63,911 bases of DNA, filler included, from Reclinomonas americana ATCC 50394 (GCA_048213135.1; 21 parts of 21 records of this genome joined end to end with filler, not necessarily neighbours in it); one strand, 5' to 3'; positions 4,117 to 62,085 are shown, counted from the first letter of the whole stretch. The notes: generated from the sequence alone by a model not told the origin. Made by a program: numbers and translations.

Positions 4117-6931
4117 TTACTTGTACAGCGCGGCCTGGAGGTCAGGCAAAACCGACCCGATGACACGAACGAGCAGTCCGCCACTCCCGGCTGCACCCAG
4201 AGACCACACCCACATCGCCTTGCCACTGCCGCATACGATGCGTTCACCATCGGTGGTGATGGCAACAGACTTTATCGGCGCAGTGTGCCCCTCCAACCGG
4301 TGCACTTCTTCGCCGCTCGCCAGCGACCACACGCGCACCGTCTTGTCCTCACTTCCGCTCACCACAAGCTGGCCGTTGGGAACAACGGCGACAGACCGCA
4401 CCATATTCGTGTGACCCAGCAGTCGTCGCACCTCTTCGCCACTTGCCAGTGACCACACACGTACCGTGTTGTCCAAGCTTCCGCTGACAATCAGCCGGCT
4501 GTCGGGTNNNNNNNNNNNNNNNNNNNNNNNNNNNNNNNNNNNNNNNNNNNNTTAATTAATTAANNNNNNNNNNNNNNNNNNNNNNNNNNNNNNNNNNNNN
4601 NNNNNNNAACGTGCTTGCCGTCGGGAGTGACGGCAACAGACGACACGCCAGCATCATGTCCAGCAAACTTTAGCACTTCGGCGCCGGTCGCCAGAGACCA
4701 CACACGCACCTTTTCGTCGTCACCCCCACTGACAATGTGCTGCCCGTCGGGGGTGACAGCTATGGAGGTCACGGTATCGCTGTGCCCCTTGAACGGCTTC
4801 CGCGGCCACATCACACTCGTCACATCCGCCTCCCGAAAGTCAGCCTCACGCGCAAACGCCATGCACAGGTTCGCCCCTCGCAAATCCGCTCCTCGCCACA
4901 CCGTTCGGTGCATCACCGCATCGCGCAGATCCGCACCCCTCACTCGCACACCCGACAGATCTCGCCCACTGAACGGCACCTCTGCGAGGCACAGTGCACT
5001 GGCTGCACTCGACGCCAATGCCGCCATCCTCTCATCTTTCCGTGACGCCACAGTGGCATTCCACAACACGTCATGCAGCGACGGCTCGGCTCGTACTTGC
5101 TCGGCGACGAATGACAGAACGGAGCTGAGGCCCTGCATGAACGGCAGCGGAGTGAGCATAAAGTACATGCTGACATCTCGTGCTTTCTACGCTCACTTCG
5201 TCCGAGGTAAGCAATGTTCGCTGGCCACTGAAGCTGGAGCACAGTCTGTCGACTCGATCCTACCGGCGACAACGACAACCAGCGAATCAATAAAAAAAAT
5301 TGCGCGAGCCACAAGGCTCAGTGCACACAGCAGTCGCCCACCTCCCAATCGGCCTCCTCGTTGGCCAACACATGCACATCTGCGAGCCACGATTGCGCAG
5401 CAAAGTACTCCAGCACAGACTTGTGCACAAACTCCACGCGTTGTTGCGATACCCCCAGTCGGCTCCACTTTAACAACGCCTGTGCCAGCTCTTGCAAATG
5501 AACACAGCGGCGTCGATGGCGCAGCAAGCACAGAGCAAATGACGCAACAGCGCGCACAAGCGAATTCTGCGACGGATCATCACGGTCGAACCACTTGTCC
5601 CACACGTGTCGCTCCGCAATGACGCGCTGCAGAAAACCAGCGAGAGCGTGAGACGATAAACGCAGTGAGAGAATAGGGTTGCCGTTCAACGTACCTCGCC
5701 CTGCCGCACAGATGTCAGTGAGTGCTGCATCATTTCGCCGGCGAGATCCGAGCAAAAGTCCCACACACGAAGGCAAAAGTCCTCTTCCGACTCCCCGTCG
5801 CCATACAGCTGCGGGCCGAGTGGTCATTTCACAACGTACCCACGCATGAATTGCTCATTAGCGATACCTGCCACACACCTGTCGAATGTGCACCTGATGA
5901 TGCTCGAATTCCCATCGCAGCTTGTGTTTGGCAAACGCCTCGTACAAACGTGCACGAGTCACACGCGTCGCAGATGGCGCAGAAGCGTGGCCGTGATACA
6001 GCCTTTCCAAATCCTCCGTCACCACAACAATCATGTTCAACATGAGTGGCTACATGCGCGAAACAAAGGTCAACGAACAAAACGAGACGAGCATCGAATT
6101 CCTTCAGCAACCAGCGACTCACCGACGACGCCAGCCCGTCCAGCCCAGGCGTGTGCTCGATCTGTTGCTTGTGTTGCTGCCACGAACGCGGGTGGTCCGC
6201 GCGTGACTCCACAAATCTACTCGCGCACACAATCGCAGTGTGAGCCCAAGGCACAAGAGATTACACAAAACGGAATCACACTCAACTGTTGCAGAAAGAG
6301 GTCAATGTCGTCCTTCGAAAACAGGCGCAGCATGCATCGCGCCATCGTGCGCTCCGGCTGCTGCAAACGCGCCGCACGCGACAGGCGCGGATCCACGGGC
6401 ACAAAGTGCTCCTCGGCCCACAAGTTGCCGAGTCGGCTGATGAACTCGCGTCGCACCGACACCACCAGCAACACATTTGGCCATCTCTGCATTTGTGGAA
6501 AGGTTAAGCTCTCTTTCTTGCGCTCTCACTGGCGGTCAGTGTCACGTCGCAACATCGAGCTCGTGGTGGACATACAAATTGCCCGGTGGTTCGCCACACT
6601 CATCGTATCCATCGAGGACCAGTACGACTGTGCCGACACGCCGAAACTGCACAATGCAGCCTCCGTAAAGATACACACACATACACACCTATACACCCAC
6701 ACATACGCACCTCGTCCTCTGTCATTTGAAGTCGTTCTTCCATCGCCGCTTCGTTGGCCTCGCGCAAGAGGTGAGGCAGCAGGGCTTCAGGTTTGCGCAG
6801 CACTTCAGCGCGAGGAATGCCAGCCAGACGAGCCGACAGCACCAATGTGTCGTCGCGCCGGTGCAGGCGAGTGGTCAGCTGACGCAGAAGTACGGACTTG
6901 CCGCCACCGGACCATCCGGACACCACCAGTA
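4117..6931 (-). CDS. NACHT/STAND NTPase + pentapeptide repeat + WD40 (NWD/NLR-like) protein, multi-exon, 5' end incomplete
   Basis: Walker A GWSGGGKS, Walker B VVLVLDGYDE, VVSVRREF, FVHKSVLEYFAA, pentapeptide GADLRDA..GADLRGANL, and WD40 repeats VRVWSLASGEEV. Spans the gap at 4508. Confidence 0.85.
4508..4607. other. Artificial scaffold spacer (one of 20 in the window)
   Basis: N-run + TTAATTAATTAA (stops in all frames) + N-run, 100 nt. Repeated at about 6982, 8650, 10038, 11932, 17933, 19632, 23095, 26857, 29498, 30805, 32707, 34567, 37424, 40228, 47976, 49516, 53429, 60174 and 61808. Confidence 0.99.
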
Positions 6932-8244
6932 CCTGCCGAGAAGGAAGCAGAAAAGTGAGTGTACAAAGAGAGAGAGGCGATNNNNNNNNNNNNNNNNNNN
7001 NNNNNNNNNNNNNNNNNNNNNNNNNTTAATTAATTAANNNNNNNNNNNNNNNNNNNNNNNNNNNNNNNNNNNNNNNNNNNNGTGAGCTGCCTCTTTGTCG
7101 CGATCACCCTCGTGCATGCTGGCCACATTGTCGGTGGACGCCTCGTGTTGCGGACGGTGACGATGAAAGGCCGAGTTTATAGCCCCTGCGACACGATGCA
7201 CGCACACCTCACCGTGATGCGTTGCCGGTTGTGGGGCGATGAAAACACTCGAGAGAATAGATATCTTAGGAGGCCACGAGGCACTTACACAGTCCACACG
7301 CACGCATGCAGTTGGCAAGCACGAGGGGAGTTGATCGCGACAGGAGTTGCAGTGGGCGACGCACGGGTGCACTGCCTGCGTGCGAGTGAGCGGGGTGTGG
7401 TCGGAAGTTTGTGTGTGTGTGTTGTGCATGTGCATCTGCACATGGACACACTCTCACGCACTCTCTCTCGCCCTCACTCACTTCACTTGCCTGTTGGTGT
7501 GCATCCGTGCTGCGTCCTCGCCAATGATGATCATCAATTAAGGAAGGAGACGCACACACTGAAAAACACGCACGCGCACACGCACACACAGACACTTTGC
7601 ACATGCACATGTGTGTGTGATGCCGCCTGTGCGCACTCTGCATTCTCCTCTCGCACTTTTGCTCCCCTCTCTTTCGTGTTTCGTGCACGCTCGTCCCAGG
7701 TTGTGCGCAGGTGACCTCGTCACCTTGCAATTGCCACTGTGGTGCGGAGTGTGCACGAAGAAAGAGAGTTGAGTGAATGAGAGACGGGAAGGGAGAAGTG
7801 CGAGTGTGCTGGTCGGTCTTGCACTCTGTGTGTGTGTGTCTGTCTCTGTGTGTGTGTGCTGTGCAAGTGTGTGCTGTCCATGAGATTCCGTTACACTTGA
7901 TCTGACGGCCAACACGCTGCAACAGAGATAGAAGGGAGAGAAGGAGAGAGCGAAACCTCTCAATTACTGCCAATCATAGTGCCACCCTCACCCACACTCC
8001 GAAAGAGAGAAAACAGAGCCACACGATTACTACCTCGCCCACACTCTCACTGACAATCACAGTGCAGCCCTCATCCACCCTCCTCCCTATCTCTGTCACC
8101 ACAATGAAACGCTGAGATCTCCTGTTGTCCATCTCTGTGTCTCCCATTCACTGTGCGCAGAACAAGCGCCACCACACACAAAAAGACAAACTGTGAAACA
8201 AACCCCCCACACGACTCTCCCCCCCAAACTCTGCGTCCTCCACC

Positions 8245-10515
8245 TTAGGGCTTGCAGCGACCCATCATGCGCGCAAACATTGGCACGTCACGAATGTGCG
8301 GCACGTTGGCCATCCACATCACAAAGCGCTCCACACCGAGACCGAAGCCACCGTGCGGGCATGAGCCGTAGCGGCGCTGATCAATGTACCAGTAGTAGAC
8401 GTCGGGAGCAATGCCGGCGCGTTGGAAGCCAGCAATCAGTTTCTCCTGCACGCGAGCAGTGAGGTTCACATGATTTGTGGAACAAAGTGAGAGAGAGGGA
8501 GAAAGGGAGAGCGCGATGGAAAGACAAGAGCAGGCTTGCCTGTGATGTGCCCCACACAACAGACGACCCGAGTTGTCACCAAAATGACACACACTCACTA
8601 TCACCCACAGGCACCCGCGTGCACAGAAATCTATTCACGACAAAATGCTNNNNNNNNNNNNNNNNNNNNNNNNNNNNNNNNNNNNNNNNNNNNTTAATTA
8701 ATTAANNNNNNNNNNNNNNNNNNNNNNNNNNNNNNNNNNNNNNNNNNNNCCTCCTTCCTCCCCCCTCCCCCCTTCCTCCCTCCCTCCCCCCTTCCTCCCC
8801 TCCCTCCCCCCCTTCTCCCCTCCTACCCCCTTCACCCACCTCCTCCCATATGCGCATGGATCCACCGACAATCTCGCCCACACCCGGCGCCAGCAAGTCC
8901 ACACTCTCCGTCAAGTCCTCCTCTCCCGGCACCGGCTGCATGTAGAACGACTTCATGGCCGCCGGGAAGTGCGTGAGGAACACCGGCTCGCCAATGAGCT
9001 CCAACATCTTGCGCTCGGGGGCGTCGGAGATATCCTGTCACGCCAATCCATGTCAGCAACCTCCACTACTCCTCCCCCTTCTCCTCCTTCTCCTGCCAAC
9101 AAGTGCACGCACATCGCCATACTCAAACTGCTCGCCCTTGTCGTTCTTGGCAATGCCGTGCTCCTGGCAAAAGGCGATGGCCTCCGAGTAGCGCATGCGG
9201 CGGAACGGTCGCTGCCACACCTTGAAATCCGGGTTCATCTCCAGCAACTCCGCGCCGTGCGCCTCCAGCATGCGGCGCGACACGTCGCACACCATGTCCT
9301 CCAGGTAGCCGAGCAGCTCCTCAAAGGTGATGAACGGCATCTCACCCTCCAAGTGAGTGAACTCGGACAAGTGACGGCGAGTGTGGCTCTGCTCAGCGCG
9401 GTACGACGGAAGAATGCAGAACACGTCGCCCAGCGAGGTGTTCACGGTCTCCAAGTAGAGCTGGGAGCTCTGCGTCAGGTAGGCCTGCGCAGCAATGATG
9501 AATGACGACGACGATGAGAACTGGAACAGGGCAACCACGACTGGAACTGGATCACACCTTCTCGCCAAAGTAGTTCAGCTCAAACAGCGTGGAGCCACCC
9601 TCCACCTGCGTCTGCACCAGGGTCGGCGGCATCACCTCGTGGAAGTTCTTCTCGAAGAAGTGGTCGCGGAGGGCGCGGATGATCCAGTCACTGAGTGGAG
9701 AGTGAGCAAGCAGCATCGCCCGCAGGACTCGAACGCTGCCTTCTCTACTCACCGCATGCGCATGATCTTGGTCACGCGGTCGCCGCGCAGCGTCAGATGC
9801 CTGTTGTCCATCAGCGTGTCGACGTTCGAGTCGGGGTTCACACGCATCGTGAACGACGGATCGGCACGGTGAATCGTGCGCCAGAAATCGGCACGAATCT
9901 CAAAGCCTCCCGGCGCACGCTCGTCACGCGCCAACTCGCCCACCACCTCCACCGACGACTCCTACTCACGAAATCATCAGCTACACATGAATCCACACCA
10001 TGGTCGCAGCGGCGTACGCACCAGCGTGAGATCCAGTNNNNNNNNNNNNNNNNNNNNNNNNNNNNNNNNNNNNNNNNNNNNTTAATTAATTAANNNNNNN
10101 NNNNNNNNNNNNNNNNNNNNNNNNNNNNNNNNNNNNNGAGAGACGCAACTCGCTGCTCGCGTGTATCCGCCTCCTTGTCGCGCTTCTTTGCCTCGGGTAA
10201 TCACCATCGCACACACACGCAAGAGAGAGAGAGAGGTTGCTGTCAGCACACACACACGCGCGCGCACTTGGGACATGTCTCATCGCGCACGTGCGCGACT
10301 TATCTGCACGCTTCTTCTGCAGCTTCTTGAACTGCGCCTGCGACATCTCCTCACCCGTCTCCGGGTCCACCACCTTTAAAAGCGCGCGTGAGACAACTGA
10401 CGCACTTGAAAGCATGACATAGACTCAACTCACTCACCATTACTTTCTTCTGCTCCGGGGCCGCTGCCGCCGCCGCTGTCGAGCTGCTTCCACCCTCTTC
10501 TGCGTGATCGCTCAT
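8245..10515 (-). CDS. NARS1: Cytoplasmic asparaginyl-tRNA synthetase, multi-exon, spans two gaps
   Basis: [89 protein letters not shown]. Confidence 0.96.
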
Positions 10516-14433: not shown

Positions 14434-17400
14434 TCAATTCATCTTTTTGTTCTGCACCGTGTGTGTCACCACGAATGCGCAAATGGTGAACACGGATAGT
14501 GCCGTCTGCACACAGAGCGAGGGAGGTGGGTGAGCAAGGACAACATTTGGAGCAAGCCTCTCTCACATACCTTGGTCACAAAACCAAAATCCAGTCGCAG
14601 ACCTGCAGACGATGAGAGATGAGCACAAGCGAAACAATAAAACCTGCCTTGCGAGTGAACGCACCGTAGATCTTGAAGCCGGTGCTCTCGCCCACCGACA
14701 TGTAATACAACAGGAGCGAGTCGAGATCGCGAACCAGCGTCTCGTTATTGGTGACCAGCGTGCGCAAGCGGGCCACCGCTTTCCGACTCTACACACAGCG
14801 GTGAGAAGAAGAAGAGATGCATGCAGATCGAGACGCCGAGAAAGGGAAGGAGAGACAGGCACGCCACGGACTCCACTCCGCAGAGTCGGATTCACACAAT
14901 CGCACCCGATTCAAGAGAAACAGGGGCAGTCAAACTCGCTCACCTTGCCGGACCGTGATGTGACGACGGCGGCCGCCAACAAAAAGATGAGCCCGACAAT
15001 CGTCGTGTGAATGAAGCGGATGATCCAGACGAATGAGCTGCCGTTCTGCACTTGCGAATACACCTCCACCACGATCAAGCCGATGCACACCAAAATCACC
15101 GTGCCGAGGTACCACTGCAAGTTATTTGTGAGTCATTCCCTGCTCTATTTACGCTTTGCGTGGTGCGCGCAACTTCCACTTTCTTGTTGGTATCCGACAG
15201 TGCATCCGCCATGGACATGTGGTCACGCATGGTTCGCTGCGCAGGTCGTCGTTAGTGAAAGGAACACACGTCTTTCCCGTTCTCTCTGTATCGACTTACA
15301 TGAGTATTTGTGACGCCTCGCTCCTGGATGCGATGTACAAGCCTGGTCCACTCGAGCACCTGACACGAGGCACATGTGAGGCTTTGAGAAGGAGAGAGAG
15401 AAGGAGGTCAGAATATTTCACACCTTCAGCATGCAGATGGCGATGAAGATGCAGATTGCGCCCGATGCCAGCATGTGGAACACAACGTCGCTGACAATGA
15501 GCAATGTGATCCATACCTGAAGGGCGGAGGAGGGAAACGTCAGGCGAGGGAGGTGAAAAAAGGACGACCAGTATCATGACGAAACTTCGTATCGTTGAAG
15601 GTCGTGCTGGATGTAGTGCACGCTCTACACACAAGATACCCAGGTAAGTAGAGAAAAAGCAAGCGTATACCACAACCCTGCTCGACAACGCAACGACGGG
15701 TGTGTCCACTCCGATTCCGATGGCCACGAAAAAGAACCACACCAGCACCACTTGATTCAAAGCTTTCCTTGTGGCCGCCAGATCCTGCGCGACAGAAGTG
15801 AGCGGCAAGTGCGACACACAATCATGTTCTCTCCCCCGTCAGCGACGCACCGAGTAAACACACTCTTGCATGAGTCGGATGAAATCGTGTGAATACGTGT
15901 AGGCCAGCGCAAATGCCACCGAGGCGACAAAAAAGATGCTCATCAGAATGTTGTAGAGCTGCGCACCCAGTGTCAGGCGACACCGGTGGGAGAAGAGAGA
16001 GCGCACACGCACTGACACGCACCTGCTCATGCTCGGCCTGATCAAAGAGCACCAGTGCAATCACTTGGCAGCCAATGGCCACCGACGACATTAAAACGAT
16101 GAGCAGAATGTGCCATGTCCAGGCCCAGGAACTCGGGTGCCTGCATATGGGGGAAGGGATGGGGGAGAGAAGGAAAGAGAGGGAGAGAGAGAGAGGAGGT
16201 GAGAAAGAGGGAGGGAGAGGGAGGGAGAGGGAGGAGGGAGGAGGGAGGAGGGAGGAGGGAGGGAGAGAGAGGAGGGAGGAGAGAGGTAAACGGGCAGAGA
16301 CGGACATATAAGCAAAGAGAGCCACAAGGACGGAGGGAGGGCGGGAGAGAGAGAAGAGAGAGAAATGTGGGAGAGAAAGGGAAGGGAGATACGGAGTCAA
16401 GTGCAGTGAGTCACAGACAAGCAAATCCCCAGGGAGGCAGACAGCGGGAGCGAATGCCGGGAACGAAACAGACAAGCAGACAGACAACCAAGGGGCAGAA
16501 AGAGCTCACTGTGGGGGAGGGAGAAACCAGGATAGAAAGCGGCAAACGAGGGAGAGACGAAGTGGCCGCGAGAGGGTTGAAAGGGAAGCAAGATAAAGAA
16601 TCACAATTTATCGTCCCATTGCCTCTTTGACGCACCACAACGACAAACTCCGCAGCAAGTAGTAGAACGGCTTGGACACCGCAAACAGCTCGCGGCAGTC
16701 AAAAATGAGCTTATTGCGCGTGGGCACCACGGCGTACTGTGGCAACTTGGCGGCCGCCGACTCGTCCAGCGAGTACAACGACATGGAACGCTCACGAAGG
16801 CTGGTGCGGCCGTGGCCATTGGGTCGACCACCGGGTGTATGGTGATGCTGGGCGCCGCCGCCACCGCCACCACCACCACCTCCAGCAGCGGCAGCGGCGG
16901 CTGCGTCGCCATCGTCGCCGTCATTGTTGACGCTGCCGTTTGTGGCATTCGGTGTGGACGAGGCATGATGCAGGAATGCCGTGGCCGGCAACATGGTCTT
17001 GACCTGCGCGGGGCGAGAGTGAGAAATAAGAGAAAGGGGGGAGGAGGAGGAAGGAGCTGAGATTGACCTTTCTTGCTGAATGCGTCCGTGCACTTGTCCT
17101 GCGCTCCAGCGACGAGGGTGGTTGGTGATCGGCTGGCTGCATGATCGATGACCGCCTCGCATCGTGCGTGCCTCGGTGACCGCTCTCCTCGTCGTCCTCG
17201 CCACTGCTGTATTCGGCGTCGTATTCCTCGGCGTCGTCGGCGCCGTGCGCACGTGCTGTGGATCGAGGGGGAAGGGCACAGAATCAGCATGCAGCATGCA
17301 CTTCCTCCCTCGAAAACATGGACGCAACGAAAACGATCGCCGTATCGCAAAGCGCCGTTGCCATTGCCGGAGCTGTTCTCCCGATGTGACAACAGGTGCT

Positions 17401-19378: not shown

Positions 19379-25178
<5,800 letters not shown>

Positions 25179-27100: not shown

Positions 27101-30100
27101 TGCCAACGCCTACGGAGCAAGCGCTGCTGGTGGCGGCATTGGTCTGTGGGGCCCAGCAATGATGGTGTGCCGCGCACTGGGCATCGAGTCGACCCTCCGC
27201 AGCACCGGAAAAATGATGGACTGCGCAGGTTGCTTACCCCCCACGAGACGAGTACCCCTGCTCCCGCAGGCTCACCTTTATCGCCTGCTTTGCCTGCTTG
27301 TTGTTGTGACAGGCTATCGAGAGCACCAGGGAGGTGCGTGGCTTGCGCGGCCGTCGCCTCTTGAGCAGTCGCGGTTGACGCGATGCTTGTGTCTGCCGCG
27401 GTACGAGTTGACCAGTGCACTGTTGACGGAGGCGAGTGCGTTGCGCGCTCTGGACAGTGCCAGTGCGGTGACGGTGGCGACGGGTCGGCGTGTGGTTGGC
27501 TATGAGGAGTTTGCGGGTGGGGTGCGCGTGAGGATGGAGGATGGTGCGGTTTCGAAGAGAGAGTGTGTGTGTGTGTTCGATGACGGTGGCAACTGACGAG
27601 TGATGGTTTCGCAGGCGAGCAGATTGATGCTTCCTACCTGGTGTGTGTGGGCAGTCAAACAGGGGAAGGAGAAGGGACAGGGAATGAGTGTTGTGAGTTA
27701 GACGAGAAGGGATTCCGATTGCGAAAAAATGCAACGTTGAGTGAGACTACATGGGATTCGAAGTTTGAGGTGGACACGAGCTCTGTAGGGAGATTGTAAG
27801 AGTGTGCGTATGTGAGAGAGATGATGAGAACGAGAACCAGACGTGTAGGGAATTCCGATTGCAAACGCGACGTGGATAGAGATGCGGAGAAGAGACAGTT
27901 GAAATTAAAAAAGTGTGGGGCGGGCGCGAGTCGAAAAGAGATTGTGTGGGTGTACATGCGTGAGAAAAGGAGATTGAGAATGCGACAGTAAGGGAGTGGA
28001 AGAAGGGGAACGAGCGAGACGAGAGAGTTGAACACGAGTCACTGCGCAAGCTGCATGACAGAGGCTGGGAGATGGAGAGTTTCACATTACAAGTTGTTTG
28101 ACTGTCGTGTGCAGATCGCCGCTGATGGCATTCGATCGACTGTGCGTTCTCACATGTATCCCGACGTGCAACCGCAGTATTCAGGCTACAGTTGCGTGCA
28201 CACGCTTCCTCGGTCGCGCTCACTGTGCTCATTTCTCATCCACTCAAAAATAGCCTACTTCCGCTGCGTCACCGATCGTTTCCCGGAAATCTCCGCGCAT
28301 CATCCCGCCTTTGAGACATGGGCCCCACATCGCCGATTCGGTATGGTGCCGCTTGCCGATCCGTGGTTGTTTTGGTTTGCTGTCGAGGAGCGTCCGCCCT
28401 TGGGGCCTGGAGAAGCTGTTGGTGCGCCCATTATCTTCCTCTCTTACCTCCGTCCGAACACTTCCTGAGTTGGCGTGCAGATATGCAAGCCGAGAAGAAC
28501 ACGTTGCTGCAGAATTTCGGGCGGACCTTCCACACACCCGTGGAGCGCCTGATTGCCGAAACGCCCGTGTCGCAGTGGTATCAGACCGACATTTACGAGA
28601 TGCCATTGCTGAGTTCGTGGAGTTCGTCCAGTGGCCGCGTGATTCTCACGGGTGATGCGGCGCACGCCCCCGCACCGAACCTTGCGCAGGTGAGGCGTGA
28701 AAAGGGGGAGAGAGGGAGAATGGGGAGAGGGAGACGTACTCGGCACAGTGAGGCATAGAGCGAGATTCGACATTGCATGTTGCACAGCGAACAGATTGCT
28801 GGTGATTCATCGGATAGAGATGGAGCACTGCTTTGAGGATGGCATTGTTCCCGTCGTGTGGTGCTGTGAGGACGAAGAATGGGGGAAAGCGCGCACCCAT
28901 ACTTCTCTCTGTTTCCTCTGCATCGACACAATGCCGCTTTCATCCCTCTGTCCATTCTTCTCTTTGTCGCCCTCTGTCTCACCCTCTCTCGCCTTACCTC
29001 TTGCCATCTCATTCTCTTTTACCACCTCTGTTCCTCTTCGTTCCTCTCCACATTCCACCCTCTCTCTCACCTTCTGTTTCACCCTGTCTTTCTTGCACTC
29101 CCCTCCTATCTCTTCCTGTCTCCCCACACTTTGACTCCCTGCCTTTGACCATCCTACCACCTCTGCTCACATCTGTTTTCTTCTCTGCATTCTAGCCTTA
29201 CACTCTCTCACCTATTTTCTCACCTTTTGTCTGACCCGCTCACTCTCTCCGTCTCTGTCTCGCTTCTCTGTTCTCCTTCTTGATACTGTTTTCTTGTTTG
29301 TTTTTCCTGTCCGCTCTCGCATTACCCACTCACATCACGTTCTCCTTCTCCTTCCCCATTTCTTTTTCCCTCACCCTTTCCCTCAGTCTTCCCCTCTCCC
29401 TTCCCCTTCCCCTTCCCCTTCCCCCTCCCCCTCCCTCTCCCCTTCCGTCTTCCCCTTCCGTCTTCCCCTTCCCCTTCCCTTCCCTTCCCCTTCCCCTNNN
29501 NNNNNNNNNNNNNNNNNNNNNNNNNNNNNNNNNNNNNNNNNTTAATTAATTAANNNNNNNNNNNNNNNNNNNNNNNNNNNNNNNNNNNNNNNNNNNNTCC
29601 TCCTCCTCCTCCTCCTCCTCCTCCTCCTCCTCCTCCTCCTCCTCCTCCTCCTCCTCCTCCTCCTCCTCCTCCTCCTCCTCCTCCTCCTCCTCCTTCTCCT
29701 CCCCTTTCCCTCATTCCCCCCACCCCGCAGGGCGCCGGCCTGGCCCTCGAGGACTCCATGTTCTTGGCCTCGCTGCTCGCCGAACACTTCCGTTCGCCCG
29801 ACAGCGTCGGTCCGCAGCAGGTGGCGAAAGAGTTTGAAGACGGGCGGCGCAAGCGAGCTCATTTCGTGCAGGTGCGTTGCGAGTGCCACAGCGCATTGCA
29901 CTCGTGTCTTTGACTGACGCACTCTTTGGGGAGAGCAGCTTGGTGCGCGTGCTGTGGCCTTTGTTGGACAGCAGCGCAAGCCACTGTCGACCATCCGCGA
30001 TCGCCTTCTCACCATTGTACCTGACGCACTGAAGACGCCAGTATTTGATCGTCTGCATCGGTGTGAACAAAAGAGAGACTGCACTTCCCGTTTCAATCTC

Positions 30101-43165: not shown

Positions 43166-46100
43166 TCATGGTTCCGCGGGCCTTCTTCTTTCTTCTCCCG
43201 TAGGAGGGGAGGCACGAGGTGACAGCGAGGACACTTGTTGCACGGCAAGCACTCGATTCAAGTCCTGCCGCAGGCGTGCCAACTCGGCCAGCACTTGTGA
43301 CAGTTGTGGATCGGCAGAGGGGCGACTGGCGCGCGCAATGTGCGGGGCGTCGGTGAGAGCATTGTCTCGATTGTAGCGATGGCGCCGCTCGTGACTGGCG
43401 CGAGGTCAGTATGCATCAAAATTGCAATGGCATCAACACGAAGGAGAAACGCAACATCCCGTAATGCCGGCTGTGACGGCGGTGTAATGCGTGCTGCTGC
43501 TGCTGCTGATCGTGCTGCGCTGCCGCTCCTTGATACTCGTCTGCGTCGCTGCTGGTATTACCACCGCCACCAATACCGCCGTAAAGAGGACCTGGAGAGG
43601 AGTTGCTGCCGTCTGGCGGTCGCACGAGCAGCAACTCGGATTCGTCCACTTGGATGCCGTCGCTCGACAGCATGGGTTTCTCACTGTGCGACGCGTTGTG
43701 AGGGACGACCACAGACGACAAACGGCGCCGGAGTGCAGACAACGAACGAGTTGACGCTGGCACTGGACCTGTTGTGCACGAAAGGGATATGAGCGGGGGG
43801 AGGGATAGAGAGAGAGAAAGAGAGAAACGAGGCACGCAACTTGGCTGGATCGGCGTCCCCGTGGCTGTGATCATGATCTTCATCGTGTTTCGGTGGAATC
43901 TATACAAACTCTCTTTCATCAGCGCCCGTTCCAACATTCGCAAGAGTGCAGCATCGACGCACCCCCGACACTGCCCAGTCGGCCAGCGCGTCCTTGACGG
44001 CGAAGAACGCATCCTCGGTGATGAGGATGAAAATGTTGAGCACCGAGTAGATGAAGAGGGCGACAAAGGTGTACATGTACACGCGGGAGGTGTACGCCAA
44101 CGCCGCTGACTCGCCGTAGGTGGCGTCGAAGGTGTCGCGAACGACGTCTCCGTTGAGCACGGCGAAGAGGGTGACGCAGGTTTCGCCAAAGGTGGCGAAC
44201 TGGAAGCAGGGAGAAAGATTAGGGCAATGGGAAAGGGAAGGGTGGGAGGGGGGAAAGGGGAAAGGGGAAGGAGGAAGGGGGAAGGGGGAAGGGGGGAAGG
44301 GGGAAGGGAGAAGGGGAAAGGGTGGGAGGAAGGGGTATGGGAGTGAGGGGTAAGGGGATGAGGAGAAGGCAAAAGGAAGAAGAGTGAGAACAAAGGGAGC
44401 ATGCAACGAGAGGAAAGAAGTCACAGTGGACATGGCGTGTTTGGCTGGTGATTATGCTGTGGATGCAAGTGGGGAAAGGAGGGAGATGGCAAGAGGAAAA
44501 AAGACAAGCGAGAGGCGAAGAAAGAACTGCAAGGCAAGAGCGATGAGTACAGAAATGCGACTCAAAGATGCTCCTAGTCTCCTACAGCTGCGATAGATTG
44601 AAATTGTGCATCTGAGAAATGGAAAGCGAAAGAAGAGAAACGGAGCAGCACAGTGCTAGAAAACATGAGAGGCAGAGAGAGACAAGAAAGAGGCGATGTG
44701 GGAAAGTGAAAGGGATGAAATAATGACGAATGGACAAGCTCTGCGTGGTGAACGCGACATACCCCTGGCGCAAACGTGCCGAACAGAATGTTGCCCACTG
44801 CAATCACAAAGATACCAATCAGCAACTGTTGCACACTCTGATACACATCGTCCAGCCACGCAACTGAGAGCGTAGCCGATGAACACAGGCAGTGTGCCGA
44901 TGACGAAGCGGAACACGTTCTTCAGTCCACCTCGCAGCGTGGTGATGAGCAACTGCGTATGTGGATGAGAAAAAAGTCACCTGTAAGAGGACGAGGAGGA
45001 CCGAGTGCACAAGACGCACATAGAACTTGGGGTGGTACTCAAAGTAGCGCACGACGTTGATCCAACTGGCAAAGGCAGCCACGCCAACCCACAGATTCAC
45101 GGAGAAGCGATCATAACTCTGCGGAAATGAGATGAGGCGAAGCAAGAGGAGACAAGCAGAATTCAATGAGTGACCTTGAACGTCATTTGCGAGAGGGCAA
45201 GAGAGGCGCCGACTGTGGGAACACGAACGAGTGAGAGAGAGAAGGCGCACTCCACGCAAGGGGTCAGCGAAGCGCAACTAATGTTGGTGAGGTTGGAGAT
45301 GAATGTGATCACCCACCAGGTGTTGAAAGGGCGGAACTCACGTCTGCGGGGAAAATGAGGTGGCAAGCAGGTGACAGCAACTGCGTAGGGAGCACGAAAC
45401 TCCAGCGTGACACCATCCCAGCCCACATGTGGTCCGTCTGTGTGTGGTTGCGTTCGTTGGCGCTGGCGAGTTGGGGGAGAGTGAGTCAAAGAGAGAGAGA
45501 GAGGGAGGAAGAGAGAGGCAGGGAGAGACACGGAGAGGAAGAGGGAGAGAGAGTGGGAGAGAGTAAGAGAGAAAGAGAGAGAAAGAGTGAAAGAGAGAGA
45601 GACAAGACAGACAGAGAGAGACAGACATATACGGAAAGGGAGAGAGTGAGAGAACGAGGAGAGAGAGAAAGAGGAAGAGAGTTAAAATAGAGTGCGTACT
45701 GATCACAGCAGAGTTGTGAGCGAATCACTGAGTGTGCACGCTGCTATGACCAATGTCAACTTACTGTCTGCATCCACCAGCACTTTTCTCTTACCCACAA
45801 AGGTAGACACATTTCTTGCACGAGATCGAGAAGCAGAGAAGATGAGGAGAGTTTTGCTTCCAAAGTTATGTGCCTTGATAACCTTCCGACGTTGCAAGGC
45901 TATAGAGCCAGCACGCCTCATTGCATTCGGCTGTTGAAACTCACACATCTCACTCACTTCTCTCTCTCTCGCTCTCGTTCTCTCTTTCTCTCTCACCTCT
46001 ATATCTCTGTCTCTCTCTCTCTCTCTGTCAGTCAGTCCGTCTTTCTCTCTCTCGTTCTCCCTTCCTCTCGCCTTCCAGTTAGGAGAGAGCATTCACATGC

Positions 46101-50202: not shown

Positions 50203-51322
50203 GACATCGAATCCGACATGCGCCTCTACGAAGGCATCCGCGAGGACGAGGCGCACCTGGAAAACATCGACCGCAGCATCTCCAGCGAGGCACACCGCGA
50301 GGAGATGCGCCGCTTCGCCGAGGAGGAGGAGACGCTGCGGGCGGATCTGGCGCGCATGGAGCACGAATTGCGGCAGATCGAGACCGAGGAGGCCAAGTAC
50401 GCGGCCGAGCGTGACGAGCTGGCGCGCCGCGAGGAGGACTACTGGGAGCAGTATTTTGACTACCAGACGCAGCTGCACGACTTTTTCGAGGAGCGCGACT
50501 CGATCCAGCTGCGCACGTGCGCCCTGCTGGAGAAGCACCAGAAGCTGAAGGCCACCAACGTCCTCAACGATGTGTTCCACATCGACAAGGACGCGCATTT
50601 CGGCACCATCAATGGTCTCCGTCTCGGCAAGTTGACGTCGATGCCGGTGGAGTGGAGTGAGATCAATGCGGCGCTCGGGCACACGTGTTTCCTCGTGAGC
50701 ACTATTGCGAGGAAGATTGGATTGGAGTTTCAATTGTTGCGCGGGAGGGGGAAGGAGGGGGGAGAAGGGGGAGAAAGGGGGATGGGACAAGGGAGGATTG
50801 AGAGGGCTCAGAGATGGAATTTCGCTGACTCTGATAGTCTCCCTCTCTTGATTTTGGGAGGAAGGAGGGGGTGATTGTGAAATCAGGCGCAGCGGAGGAA
50901 GAATTGATGAATAGAAGAGAAGTCTCTGGCTTTGATTCAGAGGATATATGGTGCTGTTGTCAGTCTTGCTGACTTTACTATTGGTCTCGGTCGCTGACGA
51001 CTTGAGCTGGTGTGTCCTTCTTTCCTCGTTCTCTCTCTCTGTTTGTCAGTCGTTCTTTAATCATGCAGTCTGGCGGCAAGTCTCTCTCATTCTCTACATT
51101 TCGCTCTCTTTCTCCTGTCGCGCGCGTGCTGCCTCTCGCTCCAGCTGGCTCCACTCCCCCTTTGCTCCATCGCGTCTCTAATTGTCAATTTCTGGCACCG
51201 ACTTGCTCTCTCTCTCTCTCACTCACTCACACTTGCACTCAGTCTCTCTTTCTCTCTCTCCCTTGCTCTTTCGCGATTTCTCATTGTCGATTTCTGGCAC
51301 TGACTCTTATCTATCTCTCTCT

Positions 51323-51367
<45 letters not shown>

Positions 51368-52365
51368 GTTCTCTCTCTGTCTCTGTCTCTGTGTGTGTGT
51401 GTCTGTGTGTGTGTGTGCGTCCCTCCCTCTTTCCGTCTCCTTCGTCCTCTCTTTGCTCACTGCCTCGGTCAACAGAAACCGCCTGACGCCCATGGGGAGC
51501 TACTCAAAAGTCACCAAGCTGGACCGCTCGCGCACGGTCTACGACCTGGCCGGCGGCGGCGGTGGCATGTTTTGGAACAAGAAATTCGACAATGCGCTGT
51601 GCGGTTTGCTGGAGTGCGTGATGGAGACGGCGGCGTTTCTTGCCACGAGGGATCCGTCGTTTTCGCTGCCGTATCCGTTGCGTGCATAGGGGGGAAGAGG
51701 GATGGGGGAGAGGGAAGGAGAGAGAGATCATCGTATCTGCTGCTCTGTGTGTGAGAGAGGGGGGCGGCAAGCAAAGAGATTGTGATACGTTTTTGCTCGA
51801 TCTTTTCGTCTCAGTCGAACCGCGCATGTGGTTAGAGAGTGGCAGAGAAGGGTTAAGGCATGTGGGGCCATGGCTGTTTCTGCGTCTTAGGAGACTCGGA
51901 ACGTGACAAAAGAGAGAGAGAGAGAGAGAGAGGACGTCTCTATGCATCGAGCTGGTTGTTGCATAGTGCAGTACCTACGTGTCTCCTTTGCGTTACTCTG
52001 GACTCATGATTGGGCATCGATTACACTGCTGTCTCGATTTTGAGAAGAATGGTAGAGCGAGAGTGAGAACATGTTACCAAACTGTTGTGCCTGTTGCATT
52101 TGAGAAGCAGAATGAGAATACTCATCTTATGTTCCTTCCTTTCCTCCTCCGTGCAGCATCGATGGAGAGACAGTGGGCGAGCTGTCCGTGCGACTCGGCT
52201 CCTCGGACGAGAAATGGACAAAAGCCATGAAGTACATGCTGCTGGACATCAAGTTGCGTCTCCTGTGCGCGATTGCTGAGTGCCTCGCTGTGCGCTCACA
52301 CCTCTTTGTTGCGCAGAGCGTGCTTGACGTGTGTTGTTGCGCTGAAATCACAAAGACCATCGTAA
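50203..52365 (+). CDS. ATG6: Beclin-1/Atg6, 5' part in gap
   Basis: LKATNVLNDVFHI, FGTINGLRLG, VEWSEINAALG, KKFDNAL, LPYPI, WTKAMKYML. Confidence 0.95.
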
Positions 52366-55553: not shown

Positions 55554-58500
55554 GCTGAGCGAGACAGCGAGAAACAACGAAGAAAAAAGCGAGAACGGAC
55601 AGAAGAAGGAGAGATGAAAGAGACAGAGAGCAAAGGGGGAATGCGTGCAACAATAAACAGCAACGCGATGATCGAGTGGGTGACGGGAGAGAAAGAGCGC
55701 AGAAGAGGAGAGAGAAAGAGAGAGAGAGAACAAAACCCTCAGCTTTGTCCTGCGCTAGAACGCGAGATACGGTCGTCAACATCACAAGAAAAGAAGTGCC
55801 TATCCCGTCCTTCTCCGTTCCCCACTCTTCCATTCTCCCGTTCCTATCTCTGTCCCTCTTCCTCTCCCTTCCCTCTCCCCCTTCCCTCATTGCCCACTCG
55901 ACCACCTACCGTCTTGGGCTTCCACGCCTTGTCAAACGAATCCGACTGCACCTGATCAATCGATTGCACCTTGCGACCAGACTCGCGGATAAACCACTTT
56001 TGCAGGTACTTTTCGTCAAAGAGCGCCACATAGCTGAAATCGCGCGCCTTGCGCTCCTGCATGACCTCCGCCCAGTACTGCTCGACGGAGCTGTACATGC
56101 GGGCCGACTTGGTGAAGTCCACCTTCTTGGCCATTTCGACGCCAATCAGGCGCAGCAGCGGGAGGGTGCTGGCGCCCTGCAGGCCTACCGTGATCAGCAC
56201 CAGCACCAAGGTGGTGGTGAAGATGAGCGGGGCGTGGTCGGAGGGGCCTGTGAGAGGGGGCAAGAAGGGTAAGGCGAAGGGGAAGGAAGTTAAGAGAGAA
56301 GGGAGGGAGGAGAAGAGAGAAGACGAATACGGCAGACAATACGGAAGAACAACGACGTACCAAGCTCGATGAGGAGCTCAAAAGAAGGATTTTAGCAAAC
56401 GAAATCCATATGTCACCCTCTTCCCTCAAAGACTGAAGAAATAACAGCACATAGTCATCTCTTCTCCACCCTGACACACAGGCGGTGGACGACACGAGAT
56501 GCGCCTTCCACGAAAGCAAGACCAAAGGTATCCTCTCAACCCTCTGTCTCTCAGCAGCGAAGAGAGACACAAAGGCGGTGTACCTTCACGAGAAGCGAGA
56601 CCAGAGATCTCTTTCCGAACCGATTATCTCAAAGCAGAGAAGAGAGACACAAGGGCGGTGAATAACACGAGCGATGCGTTCTCCCCACAAAGAAACAAAC
56701 GAAGCAAAATCTAAAGACGGGCACGAGAGGAAACGAGATAAGCTCTCCACAAAGAGATACAATGAACAGCGCAGTCTCCATTCTCTCAGCGCTGAAGAGA
56801 GACACAAAAGGGACACATGGCAGGAGAGAGAACTCAACACGCACACTGCTCTCTCTCTCAACCCATGACACCGCAGCACAGAAGATTCAAGAGCGACATC
56901 TCTTCAACTCCCTCTCCCTTTCCTTCTCCCCCTTCACCCCATTCCCCCTCCACGCACCATCCGGCCGCAGCATGTTAATGGCCAGTGCGAAGGCAATGGC
57001 TCCACGCAGACCGGAGAACCACATGACAAATTGGTTCTTGCCGACAATCTTCTCCTCGGGGCGGCGGAAACGGTTGAGCAGCGCCGAGATCGGGAAAATG
57101 TGCACGGCACGGCCGACCAAGCACAGAATGAGAGACCAGATGATGAATGGGAAGTCGAACTTGTGCTCGAACGTGAAGACGGCCAGGCCGAGGTAGGAGA
57201 ACACCCACGTCTCGGCCATGAAGGCGCACGAGCGCACGACGACCTCCAGTGTTTTCTGGAGAGGGCAAGGAGAAGCGAGTGAGTGAGTGGACTCTGATGA
57301 GCATGGGAGGGAAGGGAAGGTGGTCACAAAACCTCGCCGGCCGGACTCAGGTTGCGGCGTGTGTAGTAGTTCATGAAAATGCCGGCAGTGAGGATGCACA
57401 AGATGCCGGACAAGTGCATGGCCTCGGCCATCAGGTACGGCAGGAAGGAGAAGACGAGGTTCAGGGCGACCTGTTGTGGGGGGAAAGAAGGGGAAGGTGA
57501 GTATATTTTGCAGACAGTCTCCAAACGAAAAATGTGAAATGGTTCACTATTTCCCTTCTCTTTTCTCGCCTACTCTTTTCTCTCTTCCACTCTCTTCTAT
57601 TCTCCTTATAATAATAGAAACTTCACTGATCCATTCACAACAATGCGTATTTCGTCTCCTTGTGTTTCTTCTCTTCTCTGTCCTCTTTTCTTCTCTCCAA
57701 TTATCCTGCCTTGGTTATCACCTCTTTCCTTCAACGACGGAAATGATGAAGGTGCTTTTCTTCTCTTCGTCTGCACCTATCGTCTTCCATCCATTTTCTT
57801 TGCTTCCCTCTTCAATTCTCTTCACCTCCCCTCTCCTTTATATCGCTTCTCCACTTCTTTTCTTTCGTCACTTCTCTGTCTTCTATACTCTTCTCATCTC
57901 CTCTCGTCTCTCCTCTTCTCCAATCTTGTGTCTTCTCGTCTCTTCCTTCTTTCTCTTCTGCTTCTCATCCATTCTCATCATGGAAGGGAAGTCATGGATG
58001 CGATTCTCTTCACTTCGTCTCCACCTATCGTCACTTCATCTTCTTCTTTGGTTCTATTCCCCCTCCCTCTCCTCTCTTCTCTCGTCAACTCATCATCTCT
58101 CGTCTCTCCCTTCTCTTCTTCCCTCATCTTTTTTCTCTTTCTTCTCTTCTCTTCCCTCTCTCTCCTACCTCTACTTCTCATCTCAACTTTCACTTCTCCT
58201 CCACTCTTAAATGTCTTCTCATTTGCACCCATGCACTCACTTCCCCCTTCTCTCTTTTGCACTCCCTTCCCCCTTCTCCACTCCCTTCCCACACTCACCT
58301 CAATGTGCGGGTACCGATCAACTCGCACGTGCTTGAAGAAGAGCGCCGAGAGGAACGAGCCCACCACTCCGACGGCAATCGAGCCAAAGAAGAGGATGCA
58401 GAAGGAGCCGAGAGCACCGCCGACCGAGCCGAGGGAGAAGGGAGCGCCCTTGAAGGCGGCCACCGTGCTGTGCGCAAGGGAGGAGAGAAAGAGAATGAGA

Positions 58501-59701
58501 CGACGGCGAGATATGCGAGTGGCTTGCGTGGGCGTGGCGCAACTTGAACAGCACAATGGACACGGCGTCGTTGACGACACTCTCGCCAAAGACGACCATG
58601 TACAGAGTGGCATTCACACCCAGGGCGTTGAAAATGGCCAGCGTGGCGACGGGGTCGACGGCGGAGATCAGGGCGCCTGAGGGCAAGGGTGAGGGGAAAA
58701 GAATGAGGCAAGGTACAACGACTGCTTCTCTATCAGCAAATCGTTCTGAAAGAGTCTCTCAGAAACGGAACCCGAGTCAAAGGCCTTCGAAGTGAGAAAC
58801 TCGACTGTCTCTCAGTCCAGCTCTGAGCGCGATTCTCTCTCTCTCTCTCGCGGAGCAGGAGTGAGAGACTTGAAAGATCATAACCGACTATCACTCAGAA
58901 ACGCTATGAGTCTCTCAATCACGGGGCAAGAGTCCCACCCTCAATGCAACGTGTCTCTTAATCACGGAGCAAGATCACTCAGTCCAGCGCTCAGCACAAA
59001 AGTCTCTCTATCATGGTACAGGCTACGTAAAATTGAGCGTCTTCTCTCTCGCGTACTCTCTCCTTGCTCATCCCTGCGAGAACCAACTTTGCATCACTCC
59101 TCCCCTTCCACTTCTCCCTTCTCTCCCATCTCCCTTCCCCATTCGCACTCACCAAACAAATAGCAATCGAGGAACGGAACGCGCGCCGAGATACCCCACT
59201 CGCCAAACGTGTAGAGTCCCGAGCCAATCACCACGCACGACATGACGGTGCCGAAAATGGCAAACGCGCAAATGCTGCCAATGTTGGCGAAAAAGTCGCC
59301 GCGATTCATGTTGTAGCCGGCCTCGAAAATGATACCGGGCAGCAAAAAGATGAAGAACAGCTCCGGGTCGAGGCGCACAATCGAGGTGACCTCCTTGCCG
59401 GCCAGGCGGACCGACAGGCCAATGACGATGCCGATGAGGATGGTGGCGCAGCTGGAGGGGAGGAGAGAGAGAGAGGTGAGCGATGAAGACAGGAGCGCAA
59501 CGAGACAAGAGTGGATTCAAATGACAAACCTCTCGGGGAGCAAGTGGAAGTGCTGCAAGAGGAGGATTGGGTAAAACAGAGTCAGTCAGAGCTGCTGCGT
59601 AGGTGGCGATGACGAGCGGGCGAAGCGACGCAACGAATTTGAGCAGAATGTATGTGCTGGTGATGCAGAGGACGAGAATGCCAAAGAGCACCAGCAGGTA
59701 T
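54478..59701 (-). CDS. CPA1 Na+/H+ exchanger (intracellular NHE/NHX type), multi-exon, 5' end unresolved
   Basis: [76 protein letters not shown]. Confidence 0.95.
56495..56860 (+). repeat. Intronic degenerate local duplications in NHE intron
   Basis: ctctcagc-gcgaagagagacacaa and acacgag-gatgcg blocks recur. Confidence 0.55.
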
Positions 59702-60273: not shown

Positions 60274-60314
<41 letters not shown>

Positions 60315-60381
60315 GAATTGGCACACTGTGTGAGTCAAGCAAGAAATGCGCTTGATTGTACATCTTACGATGATGCATGTC

Positions 60382-60418
<37 letters not shown>

Positions 60419-60711: not shown

Positions 60712-61665
60712 CGTCGAGGATTGCCTGCAACACCAGTTCGGCGAGTTTTACCTGACGCACGCTGTCGGCGGCGCGTTCCAGGCCCTCTACGACAACTACC
60801 AGGGCATTGCGGATTCGTTTGCCAACTTTTGGGGGCAAGTGGCCAAGCGGTTCGCGAATGTGCCAAATGTGCTCGGCTATGAGGTTTGTGTTCAGTTTTC
60901 TGAAGACCCACGCTCAATCAGGATACAGGGAGTGCACGAGACAGTGAGAGAGAGGCAGATAGACAGAGAGAGAGAGACAAAGACACACAGACAAACTAAC
61001 AAAGAAATACATTGTGAGACAGACAGACCTTCCAGTGAGGCCGAGAGGGAGAACTGACGAGACGAGACGAGCGTAGAGCGAATGCCATCGTGTGTCAAGA
61101 GAATGAGAGTTGCTGTCTCGAACCTTGCCAATCTTGTCTTCTCTTGTTCTTCACATCACGCAGCTGATCAACGAACCGTGGGCTGGCGATGTCCTCGCAC
61201 ACCCATCGCTCATCCTTGAGCTCGGCCATGCAGACAAGGTCAACCTCGCCCCGCTCTACGATCGCGTCGCCAAGCAGATTCGCCAGTACGACACGCAAAA
61301 GCTGGTGTTCTACGAGCCGACCACCACCGATGTTGCGTCACATTGCCTCTTTTTCTTGAACTTGCGAGTCTTGCAGCCGTCATCTGTCTCGTTCATCGAT
61401 TCTGTCTCTCGGGTGACTTCTTTCTTAGTTCTTTCTTGCTGCTTGCCCACTCGTTGATCGGACCTCGCTCTCTCATTTGTAGGCTGTTGTCTCTGTGTCT
61501 GTGTGTTCTGCGTTCGAATCTCTCTAATCTTTTTCTCCTTCCAGTTTATGGCTGTTCTTTGATTCAGTTCTCATCATCGCTTGTCTTCCTTCCACAGGTG
61601 TATCCACTGGGCTTCCCCTCTGGCCCGCTTGGTCCCGAGTACAATGACCGCAACGTGTTGGCCTA
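60712..61665 (+). CDS. Endoglycoceramidase-like GH5 glycoside hydrolase, internal exons
   Basis: AFQALYDN..FWGQVAKRF..VLGYE|LINEPWAGD (catalytic NEP), LVFYEP and GFPSGPLG..NVLAY. Confidence 0.88.
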
Positions 61666-62085
61666 GTTGCGTCCTTCCTTCTTCATCAATCGTGTATTTT
61701 TTGGCGACTCAACTAACTCTCTTCGTTCCTCTCTCTTCTGGTCCTCTCTTCTCCCCCTTGTCCTCCACTGTGCCTCTCCTCATCTCGCCTTCTCTCCCAT
61801 ACTCTCCNNNNNNNNNNNNNNNNNNNNNNNNNNNNNNNNNNNNNNNNNNNNTTAATTAATTAANNNNNNNNNNNNNNNNNNNNNNNNNNNNNNNNNNNNN
61901 NNNNNNNGAGAGAGCAAGAGAGCACGAGCACAAGGGGTTCTTTGTTGACGCACAGGAGGAACAAGTCGGAAGGAGACTGTGTGACTTGAGTGAGAATGAG
62001 AGAGAGGAACCTTGTGCATTCTCCCCTCTCTTCCCTTCTCTCTCCCTTGTCTCTCTCTGTGCGCATTTTGCAACTCAACAACACT

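Follow-up and report, generated by a model that had tools for sequence, protein, structure and literature searches.

The hexamer GTTGCG very probably marks a genuine class of 5' splice sites (donors) in a 63,911-base stretch of DNA from Reclinomonas americana ATCC 50394 (GCA_048213135.1), hereafter the window, where roughly one intron in four to one in three, among those placed by protein homology or gene modeling, starts with it. Donors in the window are of two nearly exclusive types, G/GTNNGT with relaxed positions +3 and +4, and H/GTTGCGT with +3 to +6 invariant (the slash marks the cut, and H is A, C, or T). The second type certainly lacks the usual preference for G at the end of the exon, and we consider it probable that its sequence is that of the first type displaced one base into the intron. 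The whole explanation that we favor, comprising a genuine class, a one-base offset, and a variant U1 small nuclear RNA (snRNA) that would act as the reader, is given a probability of about 0.5. The window is made up of 21 contigs of 1.2 to 7.6 kb with a 100-base spacer at each join, has a G+C content of ∼54%, and carries eukaryotic genes rich in introns.

GTTGCG was found on the expected strand at all 16 positions where the original prediction, drawn from the sequence of the window, had placed it as a donor. As that prediction held, the exonic base before it was never G at these sites (A at eight, T at five, and C at three). Both strands together carry 51 copies; dinucleotide shuffles gave 36.8 ± 6.6, a count of 51 being reached in 2 of 100. 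A G precedes 5 of the 51 copies; three of these are antisense to predicted exons, two lie outside gene models, and none is a predicted donor. Three counts agree with the proposal that GTTGCG forms a major donor class, putting its share in the window at 23 to 30%: 14/62 donors called by a gene finder (23%), 5/18 donors tested by homology (28%), and 21/70 in the union set (30%). The 21 sites in the union set are the 16 listed originally plus five newly predicted at 15694 and 17328 (minus strand), 29876 and 30405 (plus strand), and 36058 (minus strand), the preceding base being C in the first four and T in the last.

Five of these donors were placed independently by homology. All GT or GC donors and all AG acceptors between in-frame exon anchors were enumerated, and stop-free products were translated and given a BLOSUM62 local score against homologues. 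The gene for a Na+/H+ exchanger (NHE; 54481-59701, minus strand; best match 66% identical) was scored against a 632-residue homologue (P0123). This closest relative shares 66% identity with the query exon and 51 to 74% across exon-level matches, and the nearest named relatives, from Pavlovales haptophytes, share 48 to 52%. The top junction at 59553..59634 used TTC/GTTGCGT (111 versus 100) and gave LLKF/HFHLLPE as in the homologue; that at 58468..58543 used CAA/GTTGCGC (268 versus 259), gave SIVLFN/TVAAFKG at the homologue's length, and was also called by the gene finder. In the Beclin gene (50059-52505, plus strand; best homologue 46% identical in the collections searched), the top junctions were a 740-nucleotide (nt) intron at 50736..51475 with ATT/GTTGCGC (153.9 versus 146.3, nine Beclin homologues) and a 480-nt intron at 51677..52156 with TCC/GTTGCGT (86.8 versus 78.1), both shared with the gene finder. 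The gene for a mucolipin/PKD-type channel (43169-47564, minus strand; best match 59% identical, from Anaeramoeba) contributed TCA/GTTGCGT at 44798..44864 (84 versus 72.5; P0121 and P0122), which yields FIGYAL-M-GNILFG with the homologue's spacing and had been missed by the gene finder. Splicing at these sites restores the family motifs that had been anticipated, namely LPYP/IDG in Beclin, IVLFN/T in NHE, and YALM/GNILFG in the mucolipin-like channel.

The condensin CAP-G gene (20429-24224, plus strand) supplied a variant donor, ATC/GTTGCAT at 21652..21714, which was the best junction against 21 homologues (77.9; GC reading, 74.3; unspliced, 66.8), as had been suggested for GTTGCA. The two GTTGAG variants proposed alongside it, at 6287 (true position 6286) and 32998, gained no support. 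Two further GTTGCG donors received moderate support from sequence comparison. The probable last Beclin intron, with CAA/GTTGCGT and a length of 64 nt (52253..52316), raised the mean score of the tail over 120 homologues to 67.5 from 63.1 unspliced, being better in 63, equal in 22, and worse in 35. A 63-nt intron with ACA/GTTGCGT in a flavin-monooxygenase-like gene (28191..28253, plus strand), also called by the gene finder with its trained table, yields the predicted YSGY-T-YFR, and the match to the solved chain 2rgj_A stops at ...YSG, one residue short of the donor. Homologues of CAP-G were too distant to place junctions near 24032 and 24913.

Other donors tested in the same way formed a contrasting group. 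In NHE, top junctions were obtained for GAG/GTTTGT at 59452..59529 (160 versus 134), TTG/GTGAGT at 58677..59152 (244 versus 232), GAG/GTGAGT at 57471..58298 (183 versus 171; the gene finder had AGT/GTGGGA at 58292), GAG/GTTTTG at 57256..57332 (246 versus 239), and ATG/GTGCGT at 56248..56957 (279 versus 249). This gene therefore mixes the two types, GTTGCG accounting for 2 of its 7 tested donors. The channel gene carried TAT/GTGCGT, without an exon-end G, at 44953..45019 (151 versus 138) and GGG/GTATGT at 44200..44762 (197.5 versus 190.5). In CAP-G, the donors were GAG/GTGTGT at 20723..20784 (146.9 versus 139.6), AAG/GTGCGC at 21245..21308 (100.7 versus 94.6 for the gene finder's CTT/GTCTTT at 21272), the weakly resolved CAG/GTGGGT at 22068..22132 (51.1 versus 47.5 for the gene finder's GGT/GTTTTT at 22074), and GAG/GTTCGC at 22446..22506 (103 versus 83.6). 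A second donor lacking the exon-end G, GAT/GTGCGT at 9035..9112, lies in the asparaginyl-tRNA synthetase (AsnRS) gene (8248-9961, minus strand), where alignments to solved AsnRS chains end with ...FEYGD(V) at the donor and the gene finder agreed; homology covers the donor side of this intron and the acceptor comes from the gene model.

The base at −1 was used by no placement method, yet it separates the donor classes. Among the 18 homology-tested donors, G occupied −1 in 0/6 GTTGCR (GTTGCG or GTTGCA) and 10/12 others (Fisher P = 0.0015), and both exceptions among the latter were T/GTGCGT. The union set (n = 70) gave 0/21 versus 34/49 (P = 1.7e−8), the second figure (69%) matching the expectation that non-GTTGCG (GTGAG-type) donors mostly follow G. 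GTGAGT after a base other than G was predicted once, at 35070, and was not confirmed by homology.

The census relied on a self-written Viterbi gene finder with a three-periodic Markov coding model seeded by Pfam-matched stretches, a strand-specific intron model, an acceptor matrix, and a GTNNNN donor table that was uniform at the start and re-estimated in each round. It replaced an earlier gene finder without splice-signal models, which over-predicted and set loose boundaries (Beclin at 50685..51499). In the uniform first round GTTGCG already supplied 3/45 donors compared with 0.32 expected (P = 0.004), and at convergence it was the commonest donor (14/62, followed by GTGAGT with 8 and GTGCGT with 5). 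With the donor table removed, it still supplied 6/62, compared with 0.44 expected from its 51 copies among 7,236 GT sites (P = 5e−6). When GTTGCG was held at the table floor while others kept their bonus, the same six sites stayed (24913, 29876, 30405, 36058, 43455, and 61332), none of them among the five verified by homology. Look-alike hexamers of similar abundance were not amplified, GTTGAG being called at 0/39 sites, GTTGTG at 0/52, and GTTGCA at 1/56.

The remaining GTTGCG sites rest on the gene model or the reading frame. Those chosen despite the penalty include AGC/GTTGCGT at 24913..24976 (plus strand), past the CAP-G domain; GAT/GTTGCGT at 43395..43455 (minus strand); a 266-nt intron with GAT/GTTGCGT at 61332..61597 (plus strand); and two that the original prediction had not listed, GCC/GTTGCGT at 30405..30465 (plus strand) and a 911-nt intron with AAT/GTTGCGT at 35148..36058 (minus strand), the flanking exons of which have low scores (5.8 and 13.3). 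Reading through 43455 meets a stop after 13 codons, and the predicted intron has an ACTGAC branch-like motif and is followed by a frame that resumes for 76 codons. At 61332 the stop comes after 41 codons and a strong pyrimidine tract (0.87) precedes the CAG; neither the 61164-61331 exon nor the 62000-62461 frame gave anything useful in searches of solved structures. A probable 67-nt intron with GAT/GTTGCGA in a STAND NTPase gene (6487..6553, minus strand) was read by hand in the gene's own frame. Its read-through stops after three codons, it has a CTTAAC branch-like motif, and splicing joins ...HHELD to RWPNVLLVVSVRREF; the gene finder split the gene at this point instead of splicing. By sequence, 6553, 43455, and 61332 probably need an intron to keep the frame open, and their 3' signals are good.

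Predicted with a neutral or trained donor table were GAA/GTTGCGC at 15115..15173 (minus strand; read-through stop after eight codons) and the newly found GTC/GTTGCGT at 15517..15694 (minus strand). The trained table alone gave TTC/GTTGCGT at 17256..17328 (minus strand), also new, and CAA/GTTGCGT at 43769..43840 (minus strand) in the C-terminal tail of the channel, which has no homology. An ambiguous intron at 29876..29933 (plus strand) was predicted under all donor settings and has an alternative, CAG/GTGCGT, 4 nt upstream (29872..29935); the two share a reading frame, and each has GAG, a poor acceptor, at its 3' end. The claimed donor CTA/GTTGCGT at 61666..61671 (plus strand) coincides with a predicted exon end, its intron would leave the contig, and no downstream exon was found. 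GCT/GTTGCGT at 5543..5548 (minus strand) is unverified, the read-through staying open for 76 codons and the candidate 69-nt intron having no branch-like motif and a pyrimidine fraction of 0.4, and CGA/GTTGCGT at 10144..10149 (minus strand) is unverifiable, as its intron enters the assembly gap at 10038-10137.

Several features of individual sites may be recorded here. The intron at 24913-24976 (plus strand) has inverted copies of seven bases at its ends (GTTGCGT...ACGCAACAG), the sole case among the 18 introns examined. The sequence GTGCGTTGCG occurs twice, at 27436-27445 and 29872-29881 (both plus strand), so that GTGCGT and GTTGCG donor-like motifs overlap 4 bases apart. At 61664-61671 (plus strand) an in-frame TA/G overlaps the donor, and an unspliced protein would stop exactly there. 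A further candidate, ACT/GTTGCGTGA at 13520-13525 (minus strand), lies in an ankyrin-repeat gene in which a 150-codon open frame stops two codons past GTTGCG and the gene model ends the exon elsewhere.

Beyond the donor, the 18 GTTGCG introns with both ends placed resembled the 31 other introns. Median lengths were 69.5 and 73 nt, respectively, both groups extending to several hundred nucleotides; a CAG end was present in 16/18 and 29/31, the remaining GTTGCG introns ending in TAG (one) and GAG (one); the pyrimidine fraction ahead of the 3' AG was 0.71 in both; and a branch-like YTNAY motif was recognizable by sequence in 18/18 and 27/31. By these features, GTTGCG introns are ordinary GT-AG (U2-type) introns that differ solely at the 5' end, and the shared 3' features argue against minor-type introns. 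U12-type introns have RTATCCTT as the donor, a TCCTTAAC-like branch site near the 3' end, and no pyrimidine tract; this identity was rejected because the donor does not match and the 3' features are the same as in other introns of the window. To our knowledge, the frequency of GTTGCG also far exceeds any known minor-intron share, except for the expanded system reported in Physarum. An introner or other mobile family was likewise rejected, since in an all-against-all BLASTN comparison of 49 introns (58 to 911 nt) the 20 matches listed of 191 were CT/GA low-complexity runs in long introns. Long introns (480 to 911 nt; e.g., 50742-50800 and 51690-51740) are packed with GGGGA-type purine-rich and CT-repeat runs, and short introns cluster tightly at 58 to 82 nt.

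The original prediction had described GTTGMG as the ordinary G/GTGMG motif shifted by one base and had proposed that it is read through shifted or bulged U1/U6 pairing or, as a last option, by a variant snRNA. For GTTGCG, the first proposal agrees with the donor statistics. The 34 donors preceded by G have G at +3 in 22, G at +5 in 29, T at +6 in 22, A at −2 in 18, and G at −2 in 2; scored on a matrix of these, the 21 GTTGCG sites totaled −157.7 nats when unshifted and +54.2 nats when shifted by one. Once shifted, the two forms coincide at each anchor, namely G, T, G, G, T, and the G-poor base ahead of these. Positions outside the hexamer fit the same shift, T at +7 (16/21) corresponding to T at +6 (22/34) and the G-free −1 (0/21) to the G-poor −2 (2/34). 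On this sequence evidence, H/GTTGCGT is probably G/GTNNGT displaced one base into the intron. GTTGAG was a predicted donor at none of its 39 sites.

The second proposal, that ordinary U1 and then U6 read GTTGCG one base off register or with a bulged U and otherwise unchanged machinery, is quite unlikely, and the original prediction was probably wrong on this reader. The idea draws on the positional match to a displaced G/GTNNGT and on the shifted, bulged, and asymmetric-loop registers described for human sites in PMC4856993, and RNAduplex, which takes the best duplex in any register, selects the shifted register for TCA/GTTGCGTGG and for a model site. The energies are negligible, however: against the canonical U1 5' end, the six homology-verified GTTGCR donors averaged −0.73 kcal/mol, below the pairing of 600 random GT sites from the window (−2.54) and of other verified donors (−6.77). 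A pure shift would also lead one to expect A at +5 at least as often as C, yet GTTGAG, which pairs better in a model duplex (−6.7 versus −2.3 kcal/mol), was never a predicted donor, compared with 14/51 for GTTGCG. A bulged U would leave −1 opposite C9 of U1 and favor G there, so the absence of G from all 21 sites disfavors a bulge. Moreover, a mechanism of ∼2% of human sites would have to serve ∼30% of donors. When positions 5 and 6 of the U1 5' end were hypothetically set to G and C, GTTGCR donors averaged −6.38 and other verified donors −9.77 kcal/mol, the weakest verified donor moved from +0.5 to −3.1, and the two T/GTGCGT donors moved from −1.1 and −2.2 to −9.0 and −10.1. Because both donor forms gain energy in this way, a variant U1 was ranked as the most likely reader, and of the options in the original prediction the variant snRNA fits best. 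In the mechanism proposed, the reader, most likely the U1 5' end and then U6, would, in the GTTGCG form, lie an additional base 3' of the cut, and the first G of the intron would take the slot normally held by the last G of the exon. The ordinary U1 5' end, with almost no predicted pairing to GUUGCGU, would not be this reader; it would be a U1, or a second U1 copy, with a 5' end complementing G-GUGCGU/GUUGCGU rather than G-GUAAGU. On the duplex models, some variant snRNA reading GTTGCG donors is a tentative suggestion, and the narrower version, a re-tuned or duplicated U1 used in two registers one base apart, is somewhat more doubtful.

Selection of an intron-anchored GTTGCG class by a protein (U1C- or LUC7-like, or lineage-specific) or at the U6/U5 stage, as a local version of the split between exon-anchored AG//GUNNN and intron-anchored NN//GURAG sites, is a serious rival to a variant U1, although we rate its probability as low. 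It would account for the strong anticorrelation between the exon-end G and the fixed intron motif, a pattern also reported for the two classes in PMC11732430, and it gains from the failure of canonical U1 pairing to explain GTTGCG and from the strict C at +5, which pairing to any canonical snRNA leaves unexplained when read base by base by hand. Read in the same way, GUUGCG in the normal register is a poor fit to the U6 ACAGA box, and only a one-base slip sets G at +6 and U at +7 against C and A of U6; no feature of the window bears on the proposal. We know of no protein of such specificity. Two further explanations are both highly improbable. GC-AG introns starting three bases later (GTT/GCG, after an exonic GTT) would keep the frame, and in six of the seven tests scoring both readings the GC cut came second (listed second at 4 of 6 junctions and at 52253, and read from the peptide at both NHE junctions); in the seventh, at 52253, either way of splicing outscored the unspliced tail. 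The GT reading was nevertheless higher in all seven (111 versus 100, 268 versus 259, 153.9 versus 146.3, 86.8 versus 78.1, 84 versus 72.5, 77.9 versus 74.3, and 67.5 versus 64.2), it gives the exact spacing of the NHE homologue that is 66 to 74% identical, and a GC donor won in none of 17 junction tests that allowed one, so the GC-AG reading was rejected. The class could instead be an artefact of misplaced junctions, a self-reinforcing gene finder, and a common hexamer in a GC-rich genome; the hexamer enrichment is modest (51 versus 36.8, 2/100 shuffles as high), early chance matches may grow through iterative training, and the gene finder erred at 4 of the 15 donors that could be tested. Set against this are the five independent junctions placed by homology, the six other sites that survive the GTTGCG penalty, the 3/45 donors in the uniform first round compared with 0.32 expected (P = 0.004), the equally common look-alike hexamers that stayed unamplified, and the −1 base, which splits the classes although the methods made no use of it.

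Several points weigh against the explanation built on a genuine, displaced class and a variant U1. The sample comprises about 70 introns from a single 64-kb window, its junctions rest throughout on homology or on a home-made gene finder, and 3 of the 21 sites (5548, 10149, and 29876) are unverified or ambiguous. Gene-finder donors testable by homology were right in 11/15 cases and wrong in 4/15; all four wrong donors lacked both an exon-end G and GTTGCG, and the homology tests put GAG/GTGAGT, TAT/GTGCGT, AAG/GTGCGC, and CAG/GTGGGT in their place. A sense GTTGCG at 26717-26722 (minus strand; T before, C after) is unused by the gene model and falls within an apparent leucine-rich-repeat (LRR) exon of an LRR and ubiquitin-like gene; the hexamer is thus not sufficient for donor use, and this copy may be a cryptic or alternative donor. 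In the window, 19.5% of GT sites have G before them, so that 0/21 differs from background at a P of about 0.01. Active avoidance of G at −1 by GTTGCG donors is therefore probable but much less secure than the loss of the G preference. The variant-U1 idea rests on duplex energies with invented sequences, and the strict C at +5 is left unexplained by every tested feature. Few eukaryotic RNA sequences are as conserved as the U1 5' end, which lowers the prior for a variant. No snRNA was found in the window by Rfam, either at the gathering score or at E values up to 1.

Other features of the window are summarized here. Each spacer has a fixed form (44 N, TTAATTAATTAA, 44 N; e.g., at 4508-4607, 23095-23194, and 61808-61907), and adjacent contigs are collinear, the condensin CAP-G domain and AsnRS each running across a spacer. 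Contig ends sit within GA/CT low-complexity runs of long introns. The STAND NTPase gene (2027-6932, minus strand) extends across two contigs and combines a STAND/AAA NTPase exon with a pentapeptide repeat and many WD40 repeats; further genes are of the ankyrin, EGF-repeat, Ten1, and LRR/ubiquitin-like kinds. The protein collections searched did not contain this organism's own sequences. Pfam searches returned no family for predicted exons of the genes at 12032-17932, 29598-30804, and 60274-61807, and no tRNA was found in the window. The only Rfam matches in the window at E values up to 1 were 18 sub-threshold matches to microRNA families. Their strongest cluster lies on a GA/CT low-complexity inverted repeat at 32807-32960 (25-nt arms, 80% complementary), which attracts matches to many plant microRNA families (best E value, 6e−5; 39.7 bits compared with a gathering score of 80), most likely as an artefact of composition.

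Recognition of the donor by the U1 5' end is regarded as near-universal, and pairing out of register is known solely as an uncommon exception in human. If the explanation holds, the genome would offer a natural system for asking what fixes the cut position once the first recognition helix is displaced, and it would suggest either an altered snRNA or a protein reader of a new kind. If the reader were a variant U1, a natural "suppressor U1" would be needed for about a third of introns, and the almost invariant U1 5' end would have co-evolved with the genome's donor sites, which is rare. A standard gene finder that had learned GTRAGT-like donors would get many gene models of this organism wrong, a risk illustrated by the four of 15 testable donors at which our own gene finder erred. 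Within open-licence PMC and bioRxiv texts we found no relevant report of GTTGCG donors, and the motif may be in print elsewhere.

Among known systems, GTTGCG donors share with U12-type introns a long, nearly invariant intron-side motif without an exon-side consensus, whereas the donor is unrelated to RTATCCTT and the branch region, pyrimidine tract, and CAG end are as in other introns of the window. A parallel in register is offered by human shifted-register and bulged sites (Roca and Krainer 2009, as cited in PMC4856993); the curated human set described there puts the share of 5' splice sites that may rely on noncanonical registers, all taken together, at 2.1% (Tan et al. 2016, PMC4856993). 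As in those shifted-register sites, the donor motif looks displaced by one base and the first intron G would face the U1 base that normally pairs with the last exon G. Unlike them, a small minority with measurable pairing to canonical U1, GTTGCG makes up ∼23 to 33% of donors with one fixed sequence, is predicted to pair with canonical U1 less well than random GT sites do, and leaves the better-pairing GTTGAG unused.

The two kinds of 5' splice site described in PMC11732430, AG//GUNNN and NN//GURAG, are ascribed there to U5 loop 1 and the U6 ACAGA box, respectively. The window follows that pattern in the anticorrelation of exon-end G and intron-side motif (P = 0.0015, n = 18; P = 1.7e−8, n = 70). 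It departs from it in that the intron-anchored class is GUUGCG(U) rather than GURAG, with the G-U anchor at +6/+7 rather than +5/+6, and in that what is described there as a tendency is here an almost absolute split, with G at −1 in 0/21. Diplonemid donors, as given in PMC12621601, read (G)/GTATG and not GTTGCG. The nearest sequence precedent that we found is the strict GTGCGTG donor reported outside chromosome 2 of Ostreococcus lucimarinus (Irimia and Roy 2008, PMC2483917), for which those authors raised matching snRNA changes as a possibility to explore. Judging from that account, both genomes have an atypical G+C-rich donor with a GCGT core, a CTGAC-type branch motif, and two populations of 5' signals. 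The Ostreococcus donor does not have the extra T, and its pattern is linked to intron-poor regions (PMC2483917), whereas both donor forms in the window occur within the same intron-rich genes.

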